Below, piece by piece: positions 13,429-43,972 of a DNA stretch of 64,000 bases. The stretch's first letter is position 1. The number at the start of each line of letters is the position of its first letter. The position numbers were made by a program, and so were the translations under genes. The stretch is from positions 105,770-169,769 of the forward strand of contig MFUV01000004.1 of NCBI GenBank assembly GCA_001787005.1, written 5' to 3'. The notes under the pieces were generated by a model, which saw only the letters and a program-made list of their open reading frames with translations, searched no databases and had not been told where the DNA came from. The stretch is from Candidatus Nomurabacteria bacterium RIFCSPLOWO2_01_FULL_39_18 (GTDB lineage: Bacteria; Patescibacteriota; Minisyncoccia; Phycocordibacterales; UBA9973).

Positions 13429-13502
13429 TCCGTCCTCTTGGATTCGAACCAAGGACCCCAGAGGTATAAGCTCTGTGCTCTAACCAACTGAGCTAAGGAC
13501 GG
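13429..13502 (-). tRNA. tRNA-Ile (anticodon UAU)
   Basis: Manual fold: acceptor CCGTCCT/AGGACGG, D-arm GCTCAGTTGGTTAGAGC, anticodon stem CAGAG/CTCTG with loop CTTATAC, T-arm CTTGGTTCGAATCCAAG, discriminator A; CCA not encoded. Confidence 0.8.
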
Positions 13503-16471: not shown

Positions 16472-16577
16472 GGTATTTTTATATTATTTATTAAAAGTAT
16501 AATTTCGACAAAAAAGCAAAACCTAATTATCCATGATTATAGTACTTAACGCATTAATAGCAAAGTTGTCTTGTATC

Positions 16578-16977
16578 TGTGGAGATGGGGGAAATCGAAT
16601 CCCCGTGCAGAAGGTTATTGCTAAGAAGTCTACATACATAGCGCGCTTGTGGGTTTAAATTAAAAAATTTAGAAACGAGCCAAATATTTTTTAATCGATT
16701 CTCTTTGTTTTGCTGTGACATCGAGAAAGTCGCCACAGCTATCCCGATAATATTATGCCCGCTCTTATATATCGGAAGTCTATAAGAGAGACATCAGTTA
16801 GGCGTAAGCCGAGACTGAAGCGAAAGCAAAGTCCGCCTCACCGAAGTAAGGAGAAATTGAAGCTTTCACTTTAGAAGCTAATTTTGCAATTAACATTTAG
16901 ACAAATTTTTACGAGATTATGTCTATGCTCGGTATGCATCAATAACAAATGACCAACTGTCTATGCCTTGCATCCCC
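16578..16977 (-). ncRNA. ssrA: tmRNA (ssrA)
   Basis: 5' GGGGAUG pairs with 3' CAUCUCC-ACA; T-arm GGGGAUUCGAUUUCCCC; internal ORF ...ADFAFASVSAYA-UAA; lies directly downstream of smpB. Confidence 0.7.
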
Positions 16978-36944: not shown

Positions 36945-37340
36945 TTATTTTGAATCAAGGGGAACCCTTGGGGAAACTCTTTTAAGGGTTCCCCTTTTAC
37001 TATCTTTAACTGCTACTACTTTTTCTCCCAATAATAAATTTACATTGCTGGTTCGTTTGTTTATTCGGTGCCCGGTGCCCATGGCCCTAGGCATCATCCT
37101 CTTCATAGTAACTCCTTTATCTACTCGTAATTCCTTTATAAATAAATTATCTCTTTCGATCCCCTTTTGTCTTGCATTAGCCACCGCTCCCAGCAAAAGC
37201 TTTTTTATGGGTAACCCGGCGCGCTTAGCTAGAAAATCAAGCTCAGCAATAGCTTCCGCTACTTTTTTACCCCTTATCAGCCTCGCAACCAAACGAACTT
37301 TCCTCGGAGACTGTCTATAATTTTTTAAAAATGCTTTCAT
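36945..37340 (-). CDS. rplV: 50S ribosomal protein L22
   Basis: AFLKNYRQSPRKVRLVARLIRGKKVAEAIAEL. Confidence 0.9.
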   Translation of the reverse strand: MKAFLKNYRQSPRKVRLVARLIRGKKVAEAIAELDFLAKRAGLPIKKLLLGAVANARQKGIERDNLFIKELRVDKGVTMKRMMPRAMGTGHRINKRTSNVNLLLGEKVVAVKDSKRGTLKRVSPRVPLDSK

Positions 37341-37352
37341 CTTATTTTTATT

Positions 37353-37706
37353 TTATTTTTTTGCGCCCTTCGCATCCGCTGCGGCAGCTGTCGCGCCCTT
37401 GGCGGCTGTTATCTCCGCTTCTTTCTTCTTCTGTTCAAGTTCTTTCTGCATCTTTCCCCCATGTTTCATAAATTTCTTAGTTCCTGAAAATTCCCCCAGC
37501 CTGTGCCCCACCATGTCTTCGGTCACCAAGACATCAATGTGCGTCTTGCCATTGTGGACACCGAAAGTGAAGCCGAGCATCTCGGGAGAGATGGCGGAAG
37601 CCCTTTTCCAGGTTTTGATAGCTCCTGTTGAAAGCGGATTTTTGCCGGCAATCTTTTTCAAGAGCCCTTCATCCACGTATATACCTTTTTTGATTGACCG
37701 AGTCAT
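37353..37706 (-). CDS. rpsS: 30S ribosomal protein S19 with Lys/Ala-rich C-terminal extension
   Basis: SIKKGIYVDEGLLKKI...GHRLGEF; about 25 extra C-terminal residues. Confidence 0.9.
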   Translation of the reverse strand: MTRSIKKGIYVDEGLLKKIAGKNPLSTGAIKTWKRASAISPEMLGFTFGVHNGKTHIDVLVTEDMVGHRLGEFSGTKKFMKHGGKMQKELEQKKKEAEITAAKGATAAAADAKGAKK

Positions 37707-37759
37707 GATTGATTTTTAACGAAACGAGCATTAAAAAAGCTCCTGACGAGCTTGGTTTT

Positions 37760-37787
37760 ATATTAGCAAATAAGAGTAAAAAGTCAA
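37760..37787 (-). promoter_or_regulatory. internal sigma70-like promoter (TTGACT-N16-TAATAT) driving rpsS and downstream genes
   Basis: -35 at 37787-37782, -10 at 37765-37760 on the minus strand; hairpin plus U6 (37752-37732) immediately downstream. Confidence 0.4.
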
Positions 37788-37922
37788 TTGTCGGGTAAAA
37801 ATAGTGATGGGGGACAAATCGGTCTCGAGTGCCGATCGTCCCCCTTAGATACCTCCTTTCTGTCAGCGTTAGCTGACCCTACATTCGCCGCCACCATGGA
37901 TGACGGTATTTCCTCCGCGCCC

Positions 37923-38024
37923 TCACTTTTTCTTCCCCATACGCTTTTTGGCGCGTAATGCTTTTTCGTTTTCAGCTTTACGCCGAAGCTCAGCCCGCTC
38001 AGCGGGCGTGTAGTGGTGTCCCAA
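37923..38024 (-). CDS. candidate 33-aa Lys/Arg-rich peptide (TTG start)
   Basis: AAAGGAG-N7-TTG; (M)GHHYTPAERAELRRKAENEKALRAKKRMGKKK. Confidence 0.25.
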   Translation of the reverse strand: MGHHYTPAERAELRRKAENEKALRAKKRMGKKK

Positions 38025-38130
38025 GGTGCATCTCCTTTCATCTACAACCTTAAAAGAAATATATATATAAAGCAAGATCTGGGTGTGAATAAAAATACAC
38101 AGGCGTTGCCTGTGTATTGGTTATTTGTGA

Positions 38131-38173
38131 GAAAAAATACGAGGGGCTCCGGAGGTAGCAGTGTCCGGAGCCC
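38131..38173 (-). terminator. intrinsic terminator inside the cassette (minus sense)
   Basis: GGGCTCCGG-N10-CCGGAGCCC followed by CTCGTATTTTTT on the minus strand. Confidence 0.6.
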
Positions 38174-38226
38174 GATGATAACTTTTTTTTGCCCCGACCT
38201 TCCTTCGGTCGGGGCTGGACGAGAGG

Positions 38227-38286
38227 CTAATAACAGCCTCTTCGCCCTTCGCGGCGCCTTCGGCGCCGCCCCAGGCGGAACCTCAT
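38227..38286 (-). CDS. candidate 19-aa poly-Arg peptide MRFRLGRRRRRREGRRGCY
   Basis: Promoter-like TTGCGT-N16-TATCAT, RBS AAAGGAGGTG 7 nt before the ATG. Confidence 0.3.
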   Translation of the reverse strand: MRFRLGRRRRRREGRRGCY

Positions 38287-38421
38287 CTGGGTACACCTCC
38301 TTTCATTTTTAATGATACCATAGTTGCGCAACTACGCAACTATGGTGTGGAAAAGTCAGTATAATATGAAATAAAAATAGTGATGGGGGCTTGGTCTGTG
38401 TTAGACCTCACCCCCGTAATC

Positions 38422-38589
38422 TCACCGTTTGTGGTTTTGCTCCTTGACGCCCTTTCGGGCGTCCCCCTTAAAGAGGCGACGAATCCACCGTTGCCGGCGG
38501 TCCACCACCCCTTTGTCTCTCGTGGTTTCCTCGTCGTCCCGTACCACGACGGGGCGATGCAACTTTATTCTTGTTGCCAAAACTCTCAT
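38422..38589 (-). CDS. candidate 55-aa basic protein MRVLATRIKLHRPVVVRDDEETTRDKGVVDRRQRWIRRLFKGDARKGVKEQNHKR
   Basis: RBS GAAAGGAGG 7 nt upstream of the ATG; followed by a module-A hairpin plus T-tract. Confidence 0.35.
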   Translation of the reverse strand: MRVLATRIKLHRPVVVRDDEETTRDKGVVDRRQRWIRRLFKGDARKGVKEQNHKR

Positions 38590-38739
38590 GCGAAACCTCC
38601 TTTCACTTAGGAGCTTAAAAGAAATATATATATAAAGCAAGTTCTGGGTGTGGAGAAATACAACCCCTCCAAACCTCCCCTTATCAGGGGAGGTACAAAA
38701 AATCCCCCTGACAAGGGGGACTTAGGGGGTTATTTTTTT

Positions 38740-39597
38740 TTATTTATTCTTTCCAGTTTTCCTGCGAGAGATGATAAATATATTCGAGTATTTTTTGGGT
38801 CCGCGGGTTTTGCGTCCGCCAGTAACTTTGCCCCACATCGTCTTTGGTCTCTTGGTTCCTCTGCCCTGTCTGCCTTCCCCGCCTCCGTATGGATGGTCTA
38901 CTGGGTTCATGGCAGTGCCTCGCACTGTTGGTCGAATTCCTTTCCAGCGGCTCTTGCCGGCCTTGCCGTAATTTTCCAAATGATGCTCTTCGTTTGAGAC
39001 TGTGCCGACAGATGCCCAGCAGTTTTCATTTATTTTTCTTATTTCTGTCGAAGGCATTCTAAGGTTCGAATATCCATCAGCATTGGCAACCACTTGGGCG
39101 AAGATTCCGGCCGAACGCCCGATCTTGGCCCCGCCATTTGGTTTGATTTCGATATTGTAGACGAAAGTTCCAAGTGGAATATTCCGTAATGGCAATCTAT
39201 TACCTGGCGAAAGCGGCGCCTTAGCAGATACGATGAAAGAGTCGCCGGGCTTAATGGATTTTGGCAACACTACATATCTTTTTTCCCCATCTTTATAGAC
39301 AGAGAGCCCGATAAAAGCTGAACGGTTCGGATCATATTCTACTGATTTTATTTTTGCGGGGATTTCTTTCTTGTCATATAGAAAGTCTACGTCTCGGAAA
39401 AGGCGCTTGTGCCCACCGCCTTTGTGCCTCATGGTGATGCGCCCTGCGCTATTGCGCCCCACAGAACGCCTGAAGCCATAAGTCAGAGACTTAGTCGGTC
39501 GAGACTTCGTCAAAACATGACTATAATTTACGTTAGTCATCTGCCTTCTTGATTTGCTTGTGGGTTTGTATGTCTTCATTGTCTCGTGATTAAACAA
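38740..39597 (-). CDS. rplB: 50S ribosomal protein L2
   Basis: 285 aa; GRNSAGRITMRHKGGGHKR. Confidence 0.95.
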   Translation of the reverse strand: MFNHETMKTYKPTSKSRRQMTNVNYSHVLTKSRPTKSLTYGFRRSVGRNSAGRITMRHKGGGHKRLFRDVDFLYDKKEIPAKIKSVEYDPNRSAFIGLSVYKDGEKRYVVLPKSIKPGDSFIVSAKAPLSPGNRLPLRNIPLGTFVYNIEIKPNGGAKIGRSAGIFAQVVANADGYSNLRMPSTEIRKINENCWASVGTVSNEEHHLENYGKAGKSRWKGIRPTVRGTAMNPVDHPYGGGEGRQGRGTKRPKTMWGKVTGGRKTRGPKKYSNIFIISRRKTGKNK

Positions 39598-39868: not shown

Positions 39869-39920
39869 TACCCCCTCCTTTCTCCTCCCCCTATATAGGG
39901 GGAGGCTGGGTAGGGGTATT
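39869..39920. repeat. nested palindromic element, intergenic copy (rplD stop / rplW RBS)
   Basis: TACCCCTACCCAGCCTCCCCCTATATAGGGGGAGG..AGGGGGTA (minus sense); supplies AAAGGAGG upstream of the rplW ATG; matches the recG insert. Confidence 0.85.
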
Positions 39921-43288: not shown

Positions 43289-43972
43289 ATGAGCATAGGA
43301 GCATTGGGAAGTTTCCCACACATAGAAAAACCTGCAAAAGGTTTAAGCAGGAGGGAAGTCGTGGAGCAAGTTTTTAATAGATACCATAAAAATCTTATTA
43401 ATTGGTGTATATATAAATTAAAAACAAAAAATTTAGGCTTTGACCACCAGAGTGATGCGGAGGAAATAGTCGCAGAAGTTTATGCGACATTGTTAGACGA
43501 GAAAAAAAGTCCTATTGATTTAAATAACCCAAACATTGAAGCATATCTGAACACTGCTTTACAACATGCAATTGGTCACTATATTAGAGAAAAAAATACA
43601 AAAAAGAGAAGACCGGAGGGATTGCTCTTGTCTTTAGAAGAAGTTGAGGATAGGAAAGATATTGCTCCTCAGTTGACACAATATTTTGCTGAACATACAT
43701 CTCAGCATACAAGTGATAAAGAAGAAATGTACGAAAAAATTGAGCAAGCATTAAAAAGATTGGGGAGTAGGAATCCAAAAATGGCTAAGATAATTAAAGA
43801 AAGATATGGATTGGGAAAAACCCAAGTACAGATAGCTGAATCTTATGGTGAAAAAAAACAAAACATACAGTATTTGGAAAAGCAGGCTTTGGGATTTTTG
43901 TATGGTATTATCACCGGCAGAATCATGAGCGATTTATCTATACCAAAAGGGAAAATCAAGAAACAGGGATAG
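43289..43972 (+). CDS. sigma-70 family RNA polymerase sigma factor (ECF-like)
   Basis: Region 2-like VVEQVFNRYHKNLINWCIY and region 4 HTH KTQVQIAESYGEKKQNIQYLEKQAL. Confidence 0.6.
   Translation: MSIGALGSFPHIEKPAKGLSRREVVEQVFNRYHKNLINWCIYKLKTKNLGFDHQSDAEEIVAEVYATLLDEKKSPIDLNNPNIEAYLNTALQHAIGHYIREKNTKKRRPEGLLLSLEEVEDRKDIAPQLTQYFAEHTSQHTSDKEEMYEKIEQALKRLGSRNPKMAKIIKERYGLGKTQVQIAESYGEKKQNIQYLEKQALGFLYGIITGRIMSDLSIPKGKIKKQG

Follow-up and report, generated by a model that had tools for sequence, protein, structure and literature searches.

Within a 64,000-nucleotide (nt) stretch from Candidatus Nomurabacteria bacterium RIFCSPLOWO2_01_FULL_39_18 (contig MFUV01000004.1, positions 105,770 to 169,769; this whole stretch is hereafter called the window, and positions are counted from its first letter), we analysed the spacer that separates rplB, the gene for ribosomal protein (r-protein) uL2, from rpsS, the gene for uS19. 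The r-protein cluster lies on the minus strand, and the products of the two genes were exact matches to OGI64998.1 of the same organism (uL2, 279 amino acids (aa)) and to OGI64996.1 (uS19). The gap between them measures 1033 nt. The original prediction, which was made from the letters alone, had described a GC-rich cassette of about 1 kb at this site, and the spacer as such was borne out: it is modular, carries its own expression signals and was 100% identical between European Nucleotide Archive (ENA) and Joint Genome Institute (JGI) assemblies of different samples, and it is therefore no assembly chimera. Several contigs begin or stop within the spacer at repeated 60-nt modules, as repeats of this length are expected to break short-read assemblies. 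Its description as GC-rich holds with regard to the whole window (GC content of 48.3% compared to 40.4%, with 1.9% of 1033-nt segments being equally GC-rich), but the enrichment is modest, since the neighbouring r-protein genes have a GC content of 47-49% themselves. In the direction of transcription, we read the spacer as three units, termed A, B and C, followed by the promoter and leader of rpsS, with the following features:

38740 to 39579, minus strand: rplB (uL2), Pfam Ribosomal_L2_N/C, ending the upstream transcription unit.
38670 to 38718, minus strand: tandem terminator hairpins 3' of rplB, read from a terminator scan and the sequence, CCCCCTTGTCAGGGGG with a U-tract and ACCTCCCCTGATAAGGGGAGGT with UUU.
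38612 to 38658, minus strand: unit A promoter module, CACACCC-N4-CTTGCTTTATATATATATTTCTTTTAAGCT, with a putative -35 element TTGCTT (38640 to 38635), a 17-nt spacer and a putative -10 element TAAGCT (38617 to 38612).
38596 to 38604, minus strand: Shine-Dalgarno (SD)-like sequence of unit A, GAAAGGAGG, 6 nt upstream of the ATG, duplex energy -15.6 kcal/mol, motif kept in the related loci L168 and L171.
38422 to 38589, minus strand: unit A open reading frame (ORF), 55 aa, MRVLATRIKLHRPVVVRDDEETTRDKGVVDRRQRWIRRLFKGDARKGVKEQNHKR, 33% lysine plus arginine (K+R), supported by homologues, synteny and the ratio of nonsynonymous to synonymous substitutions (dN/dS).
38373 to 38415, minus strand: unit A terminator, a GGGGG...CCCCC hairpin with the conserved tail ATCACTATTTTT.
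38312 to 38346, minus strand: unit B promoter region, with a putative -35 element TTGCGT (38339 to 38334), a 16-nt spacer and a putative extended -10 element TGgTATCAT (ending at 38312).
38227 to 38304, minus strand: SD sequence of unit B, GAAAGGAGGTG (38304 to 38294), and 19-codon ORF (38286 to 38227), MRFRLGRRRRRREGRRGCY, duplex energy -18.2 kcal/mol.
38094 to 38226, minus strand: structured 3' region of unit B, with hairpin H4 (38191 to 38215), hairpin H5 plus U-tract (38132 to 38173) and terminator H6 (38094 to 38118).
38047 to 38093, minus strand: unit C promoter module, the second copy, with a putative -35 element TTGCTT (38075 to 38070) and a putative -10 element TAAGGT (38052 to 38047).
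37923 to 38039, minus strand: SD sequence of unit C, GAAAGGAG (38039 to 38032), and 33-codon ORF with a TTG start (38024 to 37923), MGHHYTPAERAELRRKAENEKALRAKKRMGKKK, duplex energy -11.5 kcal/mol.
37797 to 37922, minus strand: 3' region of unit C, with about 60 nt of small hairpins, an orphan GAAAGGAGG (37860 to 37852) and a terminator (37797 to 37844) with the tail ATCACTATTTTT.
37784 to 38041, minus strand: A3A95_02500, an 85-aa hypothetical protein annotated in GenBank, overlapping the 33-aa ORF.
37760 to 37787, minus strand: rpsS promoter found by a consensus scan, TTGACT, 16-nt spacer, TAATAT, with an upstream TG.
37731 to 37753, minus strand: hairpin in the 5' leader of rpsS, AAGCTC-GTCAG-GAGCTT, 6 base pairs (bp), plus U-tract.
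37353 to 37706, minus strand: rpsS (uS19), Pfam Ribosomal_S19, opening the downstream transcription unit, without SD sequence.

Relatives of the locus were collected as 160 rplB loci from species-representative genomes and metagenomes, and more were added via exact-protein look-ups; they are designated here by L and a number. For the 55-aa and the annotated 85-aa ORFs, word-indexed protein searches returned self-matches only. An exhaustive HMMER search of 1.84 billion representatives with the 55-aa protein yielded two further proteins, P0002 (57 aa, 56% identity, E=3.6e-8) and P0003 (59 aa, 53% identity, E=4.2e-6), both of which are encoded directly downstream of rplB, i.e. in the same rplB|rpsS slot, in two other Nomurabacteria. 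P0002 is encoded in GCA_964367415.1 and in Hainich groundwater contigs, with a uL2 that is 94.7% identical to the one of the window, and P0003 on a 1.1-kb Logan contig with a uL2 of 89% identity. A profile of the three sequences found no further member in 5.8 billion proteins or in any ORF of the loci fetched by then, and the family was restricted to the species of the window, L168-L170 and L171, being absent from the other approximately 170 loci fetched by then. The invariant residues of the family are M-R-V-L-x-x-x-I-K...P...R-W-x-R-R-L-F-x-x-D-A-R. By the method of Nei and Gojobori, the proportions of differing synonymous (pS) and nonsynonymous (pN) sites were 0.66-0.70 and 0.24-0.33, respectively, with dN/dS values of 0.18-0.21, compared to a dS of 0.76 and a dN of 0.03 for rplB of the same genome pair. 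The 55-aa protein evolves fast but under purifying selection. Based on the homologues of similar length, the synteny and the dN/dS of about 0.2, we regard the 55-aa ORF as a genuine protein-coding gene, and the option of a novel micropeptide, raised by the original prediction, is thereby backed for this ORF. In a strain variant (L003:684-1672, ANAN16 scaffold), an in-frame deletion of 45 nt relative to positions 38539-38583 of the window takes out residues 3-17 of the protein, including the most conserved N-terminal motif.

Units A and C can be aligned with each other at their ends, whereas their middle parts show hardly any similarity. A 62-nt module is present in two copies (38032-38093 and 38597-38658) which are 87% identical and have the same 28-nt core, and none of 100 shuffles gave such a match. 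Likewise, the 18-nt terminator tail CCCCCATCACTATTTTTA occurs in two identical copies (37796-37813 and 38372-38389), which confirms both types of duplicated module that had been proposed. Across copies of the terminator, the stem differs with compensating changes and the tail is conserved. The promoter core CTTGCTTTATATATATATTTCTTTTAA was invariant in 6 of 6 copies from three genomes, with the synonymous sites of the adjoining ORF saturated (dS >1.5), and a diverged version of the module, CACAC...ACTTGCGTTATATATATAT, precedes another small basic ORF in L173. When the promoter module was used as a DNA pattern, 0 matches were obtained in metagenome_contigs or viral_contigs, collections that apparently do not include the source samples. 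From these alignments, we take units A and C to be paralogous chassis with different cargo. Terminator-like sites are enriched about four times in the region from 37300 to 39000 (9 compared to 2.2 +/- 1.6 expected); the hairpin terminators of the original prediction are present, but at least six rather than three of them can be read by eye on the minus strand. Hairpins homologous to the tandem rplB terminators of the window also follow rplB in L180. Besides, the rplB terminator hairpins (38669-38732, minus strand) gave blastn matches of 79-82% identity to unannotated stretches of Moraxella plasmids, which we judged to be due to chance or low complexity.

The second conspicuous feature of the units are the motifs in front of their ORFs. 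The 9-mer GAAAGGAGG occurs four times in the 64 kb, and three of the four copies lie within the spacer. It had been predicted to precede each of the three ORFs; this is correct for the 55-aa and 19-aa ORFs, the only ones preceded by the exact 9-mer, but the 33-aa ORF has GAAAGGAGA, matching 8 of the 9 positions, in combination with a TTG start, and the third copy in the spacer stands without an ORF. Duplex energies, including those listed above, were computed against the canonical anti-SD sequence at the 3' end of 16S ribosomal RNA (rRNA); the window contains no rRNA according to the Rfam scan. The 75 ORFs of the window reached a median of -1.3 kcal/mol at the first start and of -4.8 kcal/mol at the best nearby start, and most r-protein genes, including rpsS, have no SD sequence, with rplW having a moderate SD-like motif. 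A scan of the whole window for energies of -11 kcal/mol or lower returned only 13 sites with a start codon and an ORF no shorter than 10 codons behind them, and outside the three units most such sites are intragenic. The claim of exceptional SD sequences on a background of weak ones was thus right in substance (-11.5 to -18.2 compared to a median of -1.3 kcal/mol). With 14 nt between it and the downstream rplW start, the fourth copy of GAAAGGAGG (39874-39882, minus strand) is too distant to be a canonical SD sequence, and a GAGGGGG nearer to this start gave -11.6 kcal/mol. According to Tsurumaki et al. 2022 (PMC9297842), an anti-SD motif could be found in just 48% of the Parcubacteria. For this genome, we assume that the spacer motifs function as SD sequences; the consistent spacing of 4-8 nt between motif and start, together with one ORF being under selection, argues that SD pairing operates.

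The promoter region of unit B overlaps a 12-nt perfect inverted repeat and a 14-bp palindrome, TAGTTGCGCAACTA (38334 to 38321), which may be an operator or repressor site. The promoter element AGTTGCGCAACTATG is kept in L168, and a related palindromic promoter is found in L173. The locus L168, which belongs to the closest relative found, has all three units, in the order B-A-C instead of A-B-C, with B beginning at the stop codon of rplB. Its unit B has kept the promoter palindrome, the SD sequence, H4 and H5, the two hairpins with compensating changes including a compensating double deletion in H4, and its ORF ends at a stop codon in the same alignment column; the interior of the ORF has diverged (MRFRLGRRRRRREGRRGCY in the window, MVKGYRRGRGGRGRRNGSRK in L168). 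L173 has a B-like unit with the palindrome GTTGCAAAATTTTGCAAC, an SD sequence and an Arg-rich ORF, MPKMKIKALRRKRRRMASGQIRAWLGK, the stop codon of which lies within a hairpin. The terminator H6, AATACACAGGC..GCCTGTGTATTTTT, has a near-identical counterpart in the hairpin that immediately follows rplB in L015 and L009, two loci with minimal spacers. H6 probably marks the ancestral rplB terminator, in which case units A and B probably entered upstream and unit C downstream of it. A loop of unit B, CUACCUCC, could pair with the SD sequence, but this potential for sequestration is not conserved in L168 and was dropped. A consensus folding of unit B was based on two sequences only and gave a misaligned and uninformative result.

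Ten of the 19 codons of the unit B ORF, and 8 of 20 in L168, encode Arg, and they include CGG, a rare codon in this genome. An ORF of this kind, followed by several hairpins and two terminators of the hairpin plus U-tract type, could be a leader-peptide attenuator in which stalling of ribosomes on the Arg run decides about read-through towards rpsS. We consider this very unlikely, as the hairpins are independent of each other in both minimum free energy and centroid folds with no antiterminator pairing seen, the downstream unit and rpsS each have a conserved promoter of their own, the position of unit B varies between A-B-C and B-A-C, and the unit is absent from most relatives.

In unit C of L168, the SD sequence, the TTG at equal spacing and the column of the stop codon are kept, and a 21-nt indel is in frame; the product is MSPKHKKAGEGGKKQVWKWKKKKGKR. 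BLASTP gave no alignment between the unit C peptides of the window and L168. An SD-like GAGAGGAGGTG is found in L168 at the position of the orphan GAAAGGAGG of the window. Since SD sequence, type of start and stop are kept, the indel is in frame and the richness in Lys and Arg is retained, units B and C are probably coding as well. The annotated A3A95_02500 is probably a gene-caller artefact that masks the 33-aa ORF: its ATG lies inside the SD motif of unit C, it has no SD sequence of its own (-3.8 kcal/mol), the ATG is missing in L168 and no homologue was found.

The prediction had also named absence from close relatives as a sign of an assembly chimera or a junk insertion. In this respect, the outcome was mixed, as about 170 related loci lack any DNA homologue of the spacer interior, but it is present in reordered form in L168-L170 and partly in L171, where unit A is followed by a unit that combines the same promoter module with a new ORF, MAKPRPLPRWCKK.... 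Searches among cluster members of uL2 and uS19 for closer relatives recovered other types of cargo only, and the spacer interiors of the relatives share no DNA similarity. The lack of DNA homologues and the many contigs that break within the region would suit a spacer that is functionless filler, i.e. an assembly artefact, foreign junk or decaying remnants between two transcription units. However, the contig breaks coincide with the repeated modules, the same sequence is found in independent assemblies, the closest relative found has a homologous array in rearranged form and a third genome a partial one, dN/dS is about 0.2, and the promoter module is invariant in spite of saturated synonymous sites. 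This explanation is largely refuted, and we give it almost no weight.

The 5' region of rpsS behaved differently from the spacer interior, in that only the last 60-85 nt of the window spacer, comprising the rpsS promoter and the leader hairpin, are conserved across a wide clade. The promoter is kept in 50 related loci (L008-L168), down to about 63% uL2 identity, and across Paceibacteria it takes the form TTGAC[AT], N17, TAnnAT with TTTGCT upstream, followed by a hairpin of 5-9 bp and a U-tract. In an alignment of 45 distinct sequences of the leader hairpin, 91.8% of the cells were paired and 4 of the 6 pairs had compensatory changes, and the covariation score was reached by 0 of 500 shuffles. 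The internal promoter and leader hairpin that had been proposed to restart transcription for rpsS were therefore borne out by this conservation. The element may be a leader or attenuator that has not been described before; alternatively, it may serve as a 5' stabiliser for the operon led by rpsS. Below approximately 60% uL2 identity, rplB and rpsS are 0-40 nt apart, whereas above approximately 63% the distance is 66 nt to more than 3 kb. On comparative grounds, we regard the operon split, consisting of the rplB terminator and a dedicated rpsS promoter with its 5' hairpin, as ancestral to a wide clade of Paceibacteria. The view of a cassette inserted into a normally contiguous operon had to be given up, since the break is ancestral to this broad clade and the site is a general hotspot for cargo.

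The content of the slot in the relatives is in line with such a clade-wide cargo hotspot, as which we regard it. HicB/HicA pairs were found in L010:4700-5300 (by eye), L172:1648-2161, L173:1493-2006 and L174:921-1434; the HicA of L172-L174 is supported by a Pfam match, and the pair of L173 is located behind a duplicate of the rpsS promoter. L176 carries a NUDIX gene on the opposite strand, and the subclade with 67-73% uL2 identity has recurrent larger genes in the slot, identified by eye as a small membrane protein and enzymes of the pyrimidine pathway. Very often, the slot contains a small SD-led basic ORF, with further examples in L180 and L182. Among relatives sharing 82% or more uL2 identity, the spacer ORFs in sense orientation with a strong SD sequence had a median of 27% K+R compared to 12.5% for the remaining ORFs of this DNA (p=5e-8). 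These ORFs are mostly unrelated to each other, as an all-against-all search returned one homologous pair. This pair is a protein of 67-100 aa shared by the spacers of L099 and L102 (E about 1e-5), without an equivalent in the window.

The cargo of the slot bears on the possibility that the micro-ORFs serve in conflicts or as accessory genes, for instance by encoding small cationic toxins or anti-phage or anti-host peptides, and that they sit in a generic accessory-gene hotspot without any connection with the ribosome. Besides the HicA/HicB, NUDIX and other cargo, this would be in agreement with the rapid turnover, the patchy distribution, the atypical codon usage and the palindromic, operator-like promoter of unit B. 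On the other hand, neither the toxin-antitoxin and defence models of PADLOC and Pfam nor searches for phage DNA, phage proteins, PHROGs and plasmids gave a match, the peptides are hydrophilic and lack the kind of hydrophobic segment that small membrane toxins typically have, neither a partner antitoxin nor, in the promoter scan, an antisense promoter was found, and there is no mobility gene nearby. The patchy distribution and the fast evolution fit accessory and conflict-related roles equally well. We consider a conflict or accessory role without a ribosome link unlikely, with a small but real chance of being correct; for units B and C, toxins and small RNAs are still candidate readings.

As the best explanation, which we hold with moderate confidence, we propose that three short genes, each expressed independently and encoding a small polycationic, putatively nucleic-acid-binding protein, are arrayed in the spacer. 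The array would occupy a permissive slot, bounded by the terminator that ends the S10-to-rplB unit and by the conserved promoter of the unit led by rpsS. Each of the three units has its own putative promoter, units A and C using a common invariant module of about 40 nt and unit B a promoter overlapped by the palindrome, and a very short leader with 8-11 nt of perfect complementarity to the canonical 16S 3' end, followed by an ORF of 19 to 55 codons for a strongly cationic peptide (33-53% K+R) and by a GC-rich hairpin with a U-tract. Promoters A, B and C are expected to fire and the micro-ORFs to be translated, and the super-strong SD sequences may cause these messages to be initiated preferentially or under special regulation, in a genome which makes no use of SD sequences elsewhere. 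The common chassis and the changed order of the units (A-B-C in the window, B-A-C in L168) suggest that units duplicate and reshuffle, probably by homologous recombination between the common promoter and terminator sequences. The peptides themselves may act as accessory ribosome- or rRNA-binding peptides, or bind RNA hairpins in the manner of arginine-rich motifs; we infer binding to RNA or the ribosome from their composition, size and neighbourhood.

Several observations weigh against such an array of protein-coding genes. With regard to expression, the consensus scan recovered only the rpsS promoter and missed promoters A, B and C, which were read by eye; the third exact GAAAGGAGG in the spacer (37852-37860) is not followed by a start codon; and the anti-SD motif is reported to be missing in part of the Parcubacteria, mostly in a subgroup that lacks uL1 (PMC9297842). 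With regard to the proteins, AlphaFold modelled the 55-aa protein as one long helix (residues 18-54) with low confidence (predicted local distance difference test (pLDDT) score of 60), the 19-aa and 33-aa ORFs are represented by only two or three diverged sequences without alignable protein similarity, and frames of 20-30 codons are easily kept open by chance in GC-rich DNA. Pfam, NCBIfam, PHROGs and PADLOC gave no family for the micro-ORFs or for ten micro-ORFs of relatives, with no match of the former to Pfam and NCBIfam at E<=1, and among all chains of the PDB, ribosome structures included, neither phmmer nor profiles returned a match at E<=10. The cassette is absent from most relatives and is thus not a core ribosomal component. 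Finally, the transcript of unit B (38094-38312) is exceptionally structured (fold z score of -8.5) and its hairpins are conserved with compensating changes, so that this unit could act mainly as an RNA.

The last point leads to the alternative that structured small RNAs make up the units, unit B in particular; the ORFs would then be incidental, the GC-rich hairpins would be what is conserved, and the SD-like 5' sequence would be a motif for RNA-RNA or ribosome interaction instead of a signal for starting translation. Units A and C also have low fold z scores (-6.0 and -3.9, respectively), H4 and H5 are kept in L168 with compensating changes, the stop codon lies again inside a hairpin in L168 and L173 with a different stem sequence, and one GAAAGGAGG has no ORF. 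No Rfam family reached its gathering threshold in the spacer, and a permissive Rfam scan gave sub-threshold matches only, those to Phe, His and Trp leaders corresponding to terminator hairpins. Among them was RF01867, the Caulobacter small RNA CC2171 (E=0.006), which shares with the units a 5' GAAAGGAGGUG followed by GC-rich hairpins; the match is driven mainly by this SD-like stretch and, at 25 bits compared to a gathering threshold of 75 bits, is far too low. Scans for transfer RNA (tRNA), transfer-messenger RNA (tmRNA) and tandem repeats found nothing relevant. Against small RNAs, unit A is clearly under selection at the protein level, units B and C keep the positions of their start and stop codons and their richness in Arg and Lys despite nucleotide divergence, and the two or three sequences at hand are too few for covariation statistics. 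We therefore give this alternative a low probability, albeit one that is not negligible, and continue to favour the array of small protein genes.

Within known biology, the genes of the array resemble two kinds of systems. Thx of Thermus, bS22 and bL37 of actinobacteria and Sra of E. coli are tiny, basic, lineage-specific proteins that belong to the ribosome or associate with it. The cassette products are similar to them in size (20-60 aa), extreme richness in Lys and Arg and restriction to narrow lineages, and their genes lie among r-protein genes in the same orientation; they differ in having no similarity to PDB chains, in occurring in a few close species and in being absent from sister species. 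Morons of phages are units of promoter, gene and terminator inserted between the genes of an operon. The cassette likewise consists of self-contained units between co-oriented genes, with a composition and codon usage unlike the surroundings, and intrinsic terminators and conserved modules were found in it, the promoters having been read by eye outside the consensus scan; in contrast to morons, it is located in a chromosomal r-protein cluster and not in a prophage, has no phage matches and uses a shared promoter and terminator chassis. We consider lineage-specific small basic proteins and moron-like autonomous units as closest in kind, and the searches point to no described family.

Two further comparisons concern the SD sequences and the Arg runs. 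In Bacteroidia, a strong SD sequence of rpsU (bS21) supports autoregulation in an SD-poor lineage. The cassette is similar in that a few messages have near-perfect SD sequences where other genes, r-protein genes included, have none, but its products are not bS21 as judged by the absence of a Pfam match. Lambda N and HIV Tat and Rev are RNA-binding peptides with arginine-rich motifs; the unit B peptide, with 19-26 aa and Arg runs, is encoded beside conserved GC-rich hairpins with purine-rich loops, but the likeness is compositional only, without homology and without the domains that contact NusA and RNA polymerase. Other candidates were dropped. A resemblance of the N-terminus to bL36/YkgO, noticed by eye, was unsupported, and the window offered no rpmJ-like ORF for comparison; the known families bL36, bS21, bL34, bL35, Thx and bS22 showed no homology, and the cassette proteins are not lineage-wide. 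Given the patchy distribution and the fast evolution, the status of a core ribosomal protein appears unlikely. For an integron cassette, no integrase and no attC-like motif were seen by eye, a formal test not having been made.

A more far-reaching idea, which we regard as improbable at present, is that the micro-genes form a dedicated SD-dependent channel of translation in a lineage of Parcubacteria that has given up SD-led initiation elsewhere. The channel would be active only when the 16S 3' tail is free, and it would supply, from recombining cassettes in the S10 cluster, an accessory and strain-variable layer of tiny, fast-evolving polycationic peptides that bind the ribosome or structured RNA. 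In bacteria of the Candidate Phyla Radiation (CPR)/Patescibacteria, the ribosome is reduced, many genes are unknown and annotation systematically overlooks small proteins; at this locus, the GenBank record appears to hold only the 85-aa ORF, which is probably spurious. The locus yields a very narrow new family of small proteins (55-59 aa), strongly SD-led and highly basic micro-ORFs that recur at one defined hotspot of an r-protein cluster, and a conserved promoter and 5' hairpin that define a lineage-specific split of the S10 operon. It is also a place to ask for the role of a perfect SD sequence in an SD-poor lineage. Should the peptides bind to ribosomes, they would represent accessories of the ribosome that vary between strains; otherwise, the locus would still be a clean example of rapid turnover of small genes, or of gene birth, in a minimal genome.

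Some minor observations were made elsewhere in the window. The C-terminal extension of uS19 is rich in Ala and Lys (...KKKEAEITAAKGATAAAADAKGAKK; 37353-37430, minus strand) and matches the Parcubacteria-specific uS19 extension described previously (PMC9297842). At Rfam gathering thresholds, the whole window contained only a tmRNA gene (16577-16977, minus strand, 113 bits) and a tRNA gene (13429-13502, minus strand). A gene resembling sigma factors of the extracytoplasmic function (ECF) type, based on a weak Pfam match, is located at 43289-43972 on the plus strand, divergently oriented and just upstream of tuf and the S10 cluster, and might be of relevance for the unusually conserved promoter module of the cassette.

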